Source: Gemmata obscuriglobus (GTDB taxonomy: Bacteria > Planctomycetota > Planctomycetia > Gemmatales > Gemmataceae). Taken from it: a stretch of DNA of 32,000 nucleotides. The DNA is taken from positions 6,270,001-6,302,000 of the forward strand of contig NZ_CP042911.1 in the NCBI RefSeq assembly GCF_008065095.1, given 5' to 3'. The notes beneath the pieces are model-generated. The model was not told where the DNA came from. It worked only from the letters and a program-made list of their open reading frames with translations, and did no database searches. The position numbers were made by a program, and so were the translations under genes. This document shows, in pieces, positions 25,663-30,529 of this stretch. Position 1 is the stretch's first letter, and every line of letters begins with the position of its first letter.

Positions 25663-26955
25663 GTGTCCGCCGCTCTCCCCGCGAGCACGCTCGCGCCCGA
25701 CGATCTGTCCGCCCTCTGCCTCGGTCTCGCCCAGCGGGCAAAGGCCGCGTCCCGCGTACTCACCACCGTCCCGACCGCCGCGAAGAACCGGTGGCTGCTG
25801 TTGGCCGCTGACGCACTGCTCGCGCATCAGGACGAGTTGATCGCGGAGAATGCGAAAGACGTCGCCGCCGCGCCCGGGTTCGGGCTGAACGCCGCAGCGA
25901 TCGACCGCCTCACACTCAACCCGAAGCGCATCGCCGCTGCCGCAGAGGGACTGCGCCAGGTCGCGGCGCTCCCCGATCCTGTCGGGGAAGTGCGCGAAGC
26001 GACCGAGCGACCGAACGGGCTGCAGGTGCTCAAGGTCGGCGTGCCGCTCGGCGTGGTGTTCTTCATTTACGAATCGCGCCCGAACGTCACCACCGACGCG
26101 GCGGCGCTGTGCGTGAAGAGTGGCAACGCAGTCATCCTCCGCGGCGGCAAAGAGGCCCTGCACTCGAACACCGCCCTGCACCACCTTCTGAGCATCGAAC
26201 TGGTGCGCGCGGGGCTTCCTGCGAACGCGGTGCAACTCGTACCGACCACGGACCGCCAAGCGGTCGGCCACCTGCTCGCGATGAACGACTTGATTGATCT
26301 GGCCATTCCCCGCGGCGGGAAGTCGCTGATACAGCGTGTCGCGGCCGAAGCCCGCATGCCGGTCATCAAGCACTTCGACGGCGTGTGCCACGTGTACGTC
26401 GATGCCGCGGCCGACCTCGCGGTCGCCGAGCGCATCATTGTGAACGCCAAGTGCCAGCGCCCCGGGACGTGCAACGCGGCCGAGTGCCTGTTGGTTCACG
26501 CCGGGGTGGCCGACGAGTTCCTCCCCCGCGCCGGGGCCGCGCTTCAGGCAAAGGGCGTCGAGCTGCGCGGGTGCCCGGAAACGTGCCGACGGGTCCCGGG
26601 CGCGCGGGCCGCGACCGAGGACGATTACCGGACCGAGTACCTGGACCTCGTCCTCTCGGTCAAGGTGGTCGCCGGTTTCGACGAAGCGGTGGAACACATT
26701 GCGACTTACGGCTCGCACCACACGGACGCGATCGTGACGCGGGACATCGGCGCGGCCCGGGCGTTCACCCGTCGGGTCGATTCGGCCGCGGTCATGGTGA
26801 ACGCCAGCACGCGCTTCAATGACGGGTTCGAGTTGGGGTTAGGCGCAGAAATCGGTATCAGCACGAACAAGTTTCACGCGCGCGGCCCGTGTGGGCTGCG
26901 CGAGCTGACGACCTACAAGTTCGTCGTCACCGGCGACGGGCACGTCCGCGAGTGA
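25663..26955 (+). CDS. proA: gamma-glutamyl phosphate reductase
   Basis: 430 aa with a GTG start. ProA blocks are [45 protein letters not shown] and [30 protein letters not shown]. Confidence 0.9.
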
Positions 26956-27176
26956 GTAACGGCCGATGATGTACGGCGCGTTCGTCCTGATCACGGGCGT
27001 ATCGGGCGTGTCTTGCACCGTCCCGTCAATAGAGTCGCTGCACAATAGCTACAGGCTTGCCACAAGTGCAGTTTGTTGGTGGAGTTGTGGTAGCTTTAGC
27101 CACCTCGTAGACTTTCGGTCGTAAAGTCAGACGCAGCAACAGTTACGGCAAGAATGCGAGTAATTGCGCAGGGACT

Positions 27177-27520
27177 CTAATACTACAGCGCCTCGGCAGT
27201 TGCCCTTTTATGCCCGTGGCGTGCCGTGATACAAGACGAGCCTCATGCTCGTTGGGAGATGCGTACATGGGCGTGCCGGCCGCGCCGCCAGGCCGCGTTG
27301 AGCGCAGCCGATGTCGAGCGGCGGAGTCGGGGACAACCAGAGGCGCTGTATTATGCCAAAGTCCGAGTGCCAAAACCTACAGGGGCACCCTTAGTACTAC
27401 AACGTAGGATCGCCGTAAGTCCTTATTTCATGGCCGCAGTTGCGGTCGTAAGTCCTGATTCTTCGTGGGCACAGGCCCTGAAGAATCACCACTTGCGCCA
27501 ACCCTGCGCTGTAGTATTAG
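27177..27520. other. inverted-repeat-bounded non-coding element (candidate structured RNA or MITE)
   Basis: CTAATACTACAGCGC (27177-27191) is the perfect reverse complement of GCGCTGTAGTATTAG (27506-27520). Related half-sites and several local hairpins lie inside, and there is no credible ORF. Confidence 0.5.
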
Positions 27521-27556
27521 CAAAGGACCTGATCTCGGTCGGCGCCGTGCGGGCAC

Positions 27557-27910
27557 TCACGGCCCGATGGCTTCGGAGCCGCGTTCGCCCGTGCGGATGC
27601 GGACACAGTCCTCGAGCGGCAGCACGAAGATCTTGCCGTCGCCAATGGTGCCCGTGTCGCCGGTGCGGGCCGCGTGGACGATCGCCTCAACGGTCGCCTC
27701 GACGAACGCCTCGTTGATCGCGATCTCGAGCTTCAGCTTGGGGATCAGGCGGATCTGCACCTCGGTCGCGCGGTACACCTCGGTGTACCCGCGCTGGCGA
27801 CCGCACCCGCGGACGTCGCTGACGGTCATCAGGTACACGTCGCGCTCCGCGAGCGCCTTTTGCACGTCTTCGAGCTTTTCGGGGCGGATGATCGCAACAA
27901 TAAGTTTCAT
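27557..27910 (-). CDS. glnK: P-II nitrogen regulatory protein
   Basis: 117 aa: MKLIVAIIRPEKLEDVQKALAERDVYLMTVSDVRGCGRQRGYTEVYRATEV...GDGKIFVLPLEDCVRIRTGERG. This is the canonical P-II fold signature. It lies directly downstream of amt. Confidence 0.92.
   Translation of the reverse strand: MKLIVAIIRPEKLEDVQKALAERDVYLMTVSDVRGCGRQRGYTEVYRATEVQIRLIPKLKLEIAINEAFVEATVEAIVHAARTGDTGTIGDGKIFVLPLEDCVRIRTGERGSEAIGP

Positions 27911-28018: not shown

Positions 28019-30529
<2,511 letters not shown>

Follow-up and report, generated by a model that had tools for sequence, protein, structure and literature searches.

Mobile-element remnants probably occupy a rearrangement junction that separates proA from glnK in Gemmata obscuriglobus

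The 601-bp gap between the convergent genes proA (+) and glnK (-) of Gemmata obscuriglobus is very probably not a gene, but mobile-element debris lying at a rearrangement junction specific to this lineage. Two of the elements within it, which we designated E1 and E2, carry IS701-type ends, and E2 is, by every criterion that could be applied to it, an IS701-derived MITE. A third element, D0, would belong to a second family, distinct from that of E1 and E2. The original prediction had placed two readings side by side, a structured RNA and a MITE flanked by TA. The MITE reading was right as to the kind of element, but not as to its family (IS701, not IS630), its target duplication (4 bp, not TA) or its boundaries.

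The gap and its three elements

Coordinates are those of the window, i.e. the whole 32-kb stretch of DNA that was analyzed, and the features in and beside the gap are as follows.

25663-26955, + strand: proA (glutamate-5-semialdehyde dehydrogenase), left neighbor of the gap; Pfam Aldedh match, names of homologs, and the exact protein in G. obscuriglobus assemblies (GCA_000171775.1)
26966-26998, + strand: stump of a HEAT-like gene, its 5' ~10 codons (MMYGAFVLI), the remainder missing here; homology to other Gemmata
27027-27179, no strand: D0, a foldback of ~150 bp with terminal repeats CAATAGAGTCGCTGCACAAT / ATTGCGCAGGGACTCTA; inverted repeat I2
27181-27353, no strand: E1, 173 bp, with IS701-type termini, left TACTACAGCGCCTC and right (reverse-complemented) TAaTACAGCGCCTC; inverted repeat I5, end alignment and motif scans
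27354-27390, no strand: linker of 37 nt between E1 and E2, holding CAAAACCTACAGG, which resembles CAATAGCTACAGG at 27043 (direct repeat D6)
27391-27394, no strand: TTAG, left copy of the 4-bp target-site duplication of E2; read from the sequence
27395-27516, no strand: E2, a 122-bp MITE with IS701-type termini, left TACTACAACGTAGGAT and right (reverse-complemented) TACTACAGCGCAGGGTTGG; inverted repeat I1
27517-27520, no strand: TTAG, right copy of the target-site duplication of E2; read from the sequence
27537-27556, - strand: ancestral 3' flank of glnK, the sole part of the gap common to G. algarum JC717; BLASTN homology to contig L007 begins at 27537
27557-27910, - strand: glnK (P-II protein), right neighbor of the gap and last gene of amtB-glnK; Pfam P-II and Ammonium_transp matches

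The gap was predicted to be non-coding and low in GC, and both statements are borne out. Its GC content is 57.7%, against 68.5% for proA, 65.5% for glnK and 67.2% for the whole window, and a recount of 27061-27120 returned the same 30 of 60 nt as before. The ORFs of the gap have no Pfam match, a search of 1.84 billion representative proteins with a 119-aa pseudo-translation found no relative, and a pseudo-protein scan for dispersed copies of the gap in species-representative genomes returned no match. ARAGORN detected no tRNA or tmRNA, and a promoter and terminator scan found no promoter-like or terminator-like site. The gene upstream of glnK is amtB, which was found on CP025958.1. The encoded AmtB (28019-30529, - strand) is 836 aa long, and its transporter domain is preceded by an N-terminal extension of ~180 aa that shows a weak Mucin-like match (E = 4e-4) and is conserved in length across Gemmata homologs.

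Both strands of D0 fold better than expected (z = -4.3 for the + strand, -5.2 for the - strand), and its last three nucleotides appear to have been replaced by E1. A very strict two-arm pattern recovered one further copy of D0, at 2214-2368 of metagenome contig L176, where the terminal repeats are perfect over 20 bp; the interior and context of that copy are unrelated to D0 here, and it lies downstream of an unrelated gene. The ends of E1 are self-complementary but variant, forming an inverted repeat (I5) of 15 nt that is 93% complementary, with one mismatch. E1 is flanked by CTAA and TGCC and so has no intact target duplication, as is expected if the rearrangement, or an adjacent deletion, ran through one side of it. 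The right end of E2 and the left end of a full-length IS701 element on contig L146 (see below) share an identical 19-nt sequence. The likeness of E1 and E2 to other members of the family is limited to ~20 nt at each end, their interiors resembling none of them, and among D0, E1 and E2 no homology was found beyond shared ends. For the 37-nt linker, and for positions 26999-27026, a plain decaying-spacer origin is possible.

All of the repeats listed in the original prediction are present: the perfect 15-bp inverted repeat at 27177-27191 / 27506-27520, with 314 nt between its arms (repeat I3); the direct repeat CGTAAGTCCT at 27414 and 27447 (repeat D3); and, read from the sequence, the half-sites at 27044, 27343 and 27390 and the local hairpins at 27110-27128, 27235-27253 and 27456-27488. 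Several were assigned differently. The 15-bp outer repeat, previously taken for the two ends of one element, consists of the left end of E1 and the right end of E2, each with three bases of the CTAA/TTAG flank, and the TA read as its target duplication is the middle of the 4-bp TTAG. The half-sites at 27343 and 27390, described as related to the outer repeat, are the inner ends of E1 and E2. The motif TAATACTACAGCGC, with up to three mismatches, occurs four times in the 32-kb window, always within the gap, whereas 0.45 occurrences are expected, and none of 100 shuffles reached four. Its copies face inward as two pairs, one at 27181 and 27343-27353, the other at 27395 and 27501-27516.

The IS701-type end in other genomes

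Members of the IS701 family are 1400-1550 bp in length, have ends of the form ---YACT-Y--YR, and duplicate exactly 4 bp of their target (De Palmenaer, Siguier and Mahillon 2008, PMC2266710). The sequence TAGTACTACAGCG fits every specified position of this signature, as do both ends of E2 (TAGTACTACAACG and TAATACTACAGCG) and the left end of E1 (TAATACTACAGCG). A clear match to an IS end had been named beforehand as grounds for reclassifying the gap, and the termini of E2 provide it. Further features of an IS701-derived MITE were considered: a 4-bp duplication is present at E2 (TTAG on both sides) but not at E1, and both elements, at 122 and 173 bp, are small and non-coding.

The 19-nt consensus of the two arms of E2, TARTACTACARCGYAGGRT, was used as a pattern to scan one genome per prokaryotic species. 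It matched 83 loci, 74 of them in records titled Planctomycetota and up to 26 in one MAG; a uniform-composition null (our own rough estimate) also gives some tens of matches to this pattern. Since the degenerate positions are nearly fixed and subfamilies recur inward of the motif, the matches are not attributable to chance. An inverted partner within 3 kb was found for 37 of 87 ends, giving 33 unique elements, of which 32 are 89-409 bp long, a range that includes E2, and one is 1548 bp. Identical 4-bp flanks are present in 24 of the 33 (the chance for any one being 1 in 256), the duplications being TTAG (10), CTAG (8), CTAA (3), GTAG (2) and TTAA (1).

The 425-aa product of the 1548-bp element (L146, 3673-5220) is a transposase of the IS701 family, with matches to the NCBIfam model 'IS701 family transposase' (NF033540, 322 bits; cut-off 150) and to Pfam DDE_5 (4.8e-68), and a second copy of this IS element is present on contig L097. 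In a Syntrophorhabdaceae MAG (L148, 57-2382), the same 19-nt end adjoins an IS701-type transposase that is 32% identical to that of L146, indicating that the end sequence is conserved far beyond the transposase sequence. Transposases of the IS701 family with these ends were thus seen in other Planctomycetota and in one other phylum. The few records outside the Planctomycetota that carry the 19-nt end are L100, L108, L112, L118, L121, L129, L147, L148 and L157. Single Planctomycetota MAGs hold 6-26 loci each, namely CALBSZ01 (L095-L174), JAADGV01 (L098-L169), JAADGD01 (L122-L163) and CBDFMC01 (L107-L161), and the MAG loci represent several MITE subfamilies with unrelated cores. A number of loci lie within ~100 nt of true contig ends, which suggests that the repeat breaks assemblies. 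A 15-mer scan of viral contigs gave 79 single matches and no paired copies; being unpaired, these were read as chance level and served to calibrate noise. Keyword searches of the literature found no description of a Planctomycetota IS701-type MITE superfamily.

An IS701 transposase acting in trans would bind the ends of E2, insert the element at a YTAR site and duplicate the 4 bp. No further copy of E1, E2 or D0 was found in the ~40 kb of G. obscuriglobus that was read, and no Gemmata record is among the 83 matches, so that the inserted elements are now probably relics rather than mobile. The window's own copies were also not returned by the scan, and the window or the whole genome may be masked or absent in that collection.

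The evidence from this family bears directly on the idea of a single IS630/Tc1-mariner MITE of 338 bp (27180-27517), bounded by 12-bp terminal repeats (ATACTACAGCGC) and by a duplicated TA, which we regard as extremely improbable. The perfect 15-bp inverted repeat does have TA on both sides, and Gemmata does have transposases of the IS630 type, at L009 1-587 and, as a weak remnant, at L089 7243-7455. Against this, the duplication in the 24 of 33 family members is 4 bp (NTAR), and the transposase of the full-length element that has these ends is of the IS701 type and not DDE_3. Moreover, the flank CTAA is the reverse complement of the flank TTAG, so that the two do not make a direct duplication, and the inward ends at 27343 and 27395 split the proposed unit, its right part having a perfect TTAG duplication of its own. 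The IS630 end on L009 was also compared with the motif and does not resemble it; the comparison gave only an 11-nt match (TGCCAAAACCT), compatible with chance.

Gene order, folding and contig ends

A HEAT-like gene coding for 455-508 aa comes after proA in three relatives, Gemmata sp. JC673, G. palustris G18 and ERZ26867449. Homology on the left side of the gap extends up to 26996 in JC673 and across 26963-26992 in G18 and ERZ26867449, and tblastn searches with the 455-aa and 508-aa HEAT-like proteins matched only residues 1-9 in the window. On the right side, similarity to relatives stops at 27537, 20 nt past the stop codon of glnK, and in G. algarum JC717, G18 and SH-PL17 the amtB-glnK pair is followed by cheA-cheW-MCP. 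The ~540 bp in between (26997-27536) have no counterpart in other Gemmata, either downstream of proA or downstream of glnK, and the single syntenic copy that had been proposed as the mark of an ncRNA is not found. In G18, proA and amtB-glnK lie ~8 kb apart on a single contig and point the same way, from which it follows that G. obscuriglobus carries an inversion and that 26997-27536 is DNA specific to the junction. The inverted block comprises ABM(3' end)-BBP2-amtB-glnK (26966-27910 together with L089 7976-12993; relatives L004-L009, of which L005 and L008 are G. palustris G18), and its inversion brought glnK to face proA. The other breakpoint, located in 10 kb of sequence that follow the window (L089), lies inside the ABM gene, next to BBP2, and only residues 67-107 of ABM survive there (L089 7976-8097); the HEAT-like and ABM genes are thus both truncated at the breakpoints. 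We can only infer the order of these events, and whether the elements brought about the inversion.

Several other features were noted around the two breakpoints. Direct repeat D4 (CCTGATCACGGGCG / CCTGATCTCGGTCG, 26986-26999 / 27528-27541, 12 of 14 nt identical) brackets the 540-bp junction DNA, and the rearrangement may have exploited it as microhomology. An IS630-type remnant (L089 7243-7455, - strand) lies ~500 bp from the second breakpoint and ~5 kb past the right end of the window; it has the motif SPNLNVIEWLW and a Pfam DDE_3 match (E = 5e-5) that is below the curated cut-off. It adjoins an AT-rich stretch of ~120 bp (L089 6940-7060; ATTTATGTAATTGATTTTGAAAAGATTTATGATCATTATTCATTTTG...) in a genome of 67% GC. 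The cheA-cheW-MCP cluster that follows glnK in three relatives occupies L007 8207-12511, L008 8175-12514 and L009 8729-12478. The best non-self match in a protein search with JC717 CheA was 73% identical, and G. obscuriglobus therefore seems to be without a close ortholog. In the glnK-cheA spacer of three Gemmata (L007 8060-8110, L008 8030-8060, L009 7995-8030), the sequence TTGTAGGGCCG is followed by CTTGCA, a site that is absent from the window and may be part of the cheA promoter region.

A rearrangement of this kind also raises the idea that the gap is no more than decaying spacer, or a pseudogene remnant of the event, with repeats that arose by chance or local duplication and have no mobile origin. 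Its first ~40 nt are indeed the stump of a gene, no second copy occurs in 40 kb of the same genome, and the pseudo-protein scan of species-representative genomes was empty. We consider this highly improbable for the gap as a whole, given that the motif TAATACTACAGCGC is enriched in the gap and that the 19-nt motif recovers a large and taxonomically coherent transposon family. The perfect target duplication of E2, and the recurrence of the 20-bp ends of D0 in an unrelated metagenome contig, contradict it for these two elements.

The fold of the gap is what terminal inverted repeats give by themselves. On the + strand, the whole gap folds better than its shuffles (z = -4.6), and the strongest value belongs to segment 27389-27523 (z = -8.7 for the + strand, -4.8 for the - strand). 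The folding energy of E2 is -60.1 kcal/mol on the + strand against -53.6 kcal/mol on the - strand, and this difference counts to some extent against a MITE, since the two strands of a pure DNA element need not differ. Also to be set against the MITE reading are the unmatched interiors, the lack of a duplication at E1, the single other copy of D0, and the finding of no further copies in the ~40 kb read and of no Gemmata record among the 83 matches.

The contigs of other assemblies also end within the elements. Logan assemblies of three independent runs (SRR5887367, SRR5887567 and SRR6844241; contigs L001, L090, L091, L092) stop at the same base inside E2, 27478, which is 79 nt past the stop codon of glnK, while the other ends of those contigs differ. 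A contig from the proA side (L002) stops at 27344, inside the right terminal repeat of E1. No repeat was found that explains the stops at 27478 and 27344. They could be the 3' ends of transcripts, if the runs are RNA-seq, or an assembly effect. Literature searches for Gemmata repeats, Gemmata transcriptomes and the motif itself returned nothing relevant.

These observations are the ones that speak for a species-specific structured ncRNA, either from a stand-alone sRNA gene or derived from the 3'-UTR of proA or glnK: a strong fold at 27389-27523, a + strand more stable than the - strand, and contig ends at 27478 (three runs) and 27344 that would be transcript ends if the data are RNA-seq. Rfam, which the original prediction had put forward as a check, gave nothing at gathering scores across the whole window and nothing at E<=10 across 26850-27650, and the scan described above showed no promoter-like or terminator-like site. 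The sequence is absent at the homologous positions of four other Gemmata genomes, the closest relatives included. The fold itself is explained by its closing stems, which are the terminal repeats of a transposon family whose members show target duplications, and we judge an ncRNA to be very unlikely.

On the preferred reading, of transposon relics at a junction, the contig ends would acquire a different meaning. That the assemblies of three runs end at an identical base inside E2 hints at co-option of the element, and if these are transcript 3' ends, the relics would serve secondarily to terminate or process transcripts. Two broader proposals can be made: that the IS701-type end of 16-19 nt defines a large Planctomycetota MITE superfamily, having many subfamilies with unrelated cores of 89-409 bp, dozens of copies per genome and one conserved transposase-end interaction; and that the relic cluster may have been co-opted to terminate or process the convergent transcripts of proA and amtB-glnK. 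Both are speculative, and rather unlikely to hold.

For annotation, the outcome is the removal of a candidate ncRNA. The gap marks a gene-order breakpoint of G. obscuriglobus relative to other Gemmata, and the cheA cluster no longer adjoins glnK. The 16-19-nt signature (TACTACAGCGCAGGGT plus a 4-bp YTAR duplication) finds IS701-type elements and MITEs across the Planctomycetota, and would explain many contig breaks in Planctomycetota MAGs. The gap itself is ordinary mobile-DNA debris, with no bearing on any open mechanistic question.

Comparison with known mobile elements

The insertion sequences of the IS701 family share their end signature with E1 and E2, and their 4-bp duplication with E2. 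They differ in size (1400-1550 bp, compared to 122-173 bp) and in their interiors, which are unrelated, and E1 and E2 carry no transposase. The interiors of other MITEs with the same ends are likewise unrelated to those of E1 and E2.

REP sequences and REPINs are palindromes of ~20-40 nt that produce no target duplication and depend on a Y1 (HUH) transposase, RAYT. They have in common with the elements of the gap a GTAG/CTAC near the end, an arrangement in paired inverted copies and a location between convergent genes. The gap elements differ in their length of 122-173 bp, their classical terminal repeats, their 4-bp duplications and their partnership with a DDE transposase. A REP/RAYT identity, prompted by the GTAG, was abandoned after target duplications and a DDE transposase had come to light.

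The Stowaway-like MITEs of IS630/Tc1-mariner transposons resemble E1 and E2 in their small size, their terminal repeats and the TA next to their ends, whereas here the duplication is 4 bp, the ends are of the IS701 type and the transposase is of the DDE_5/IS701 type. Correia elements of Neisseria, ERIC/IRU, RUP and Nezha are non-coding foldbacks of 100-200 bp that have terminal inverted repeats, duplicate a short target, lie in intergenic DNA and can give stable hairpins in transcripts. E1 and E2 share this small foldback form but differ from them in the parent transposase family, and the target, which is TA for Correia elements, is a 4-bp TTAG or CTAG in the IS701-type family.
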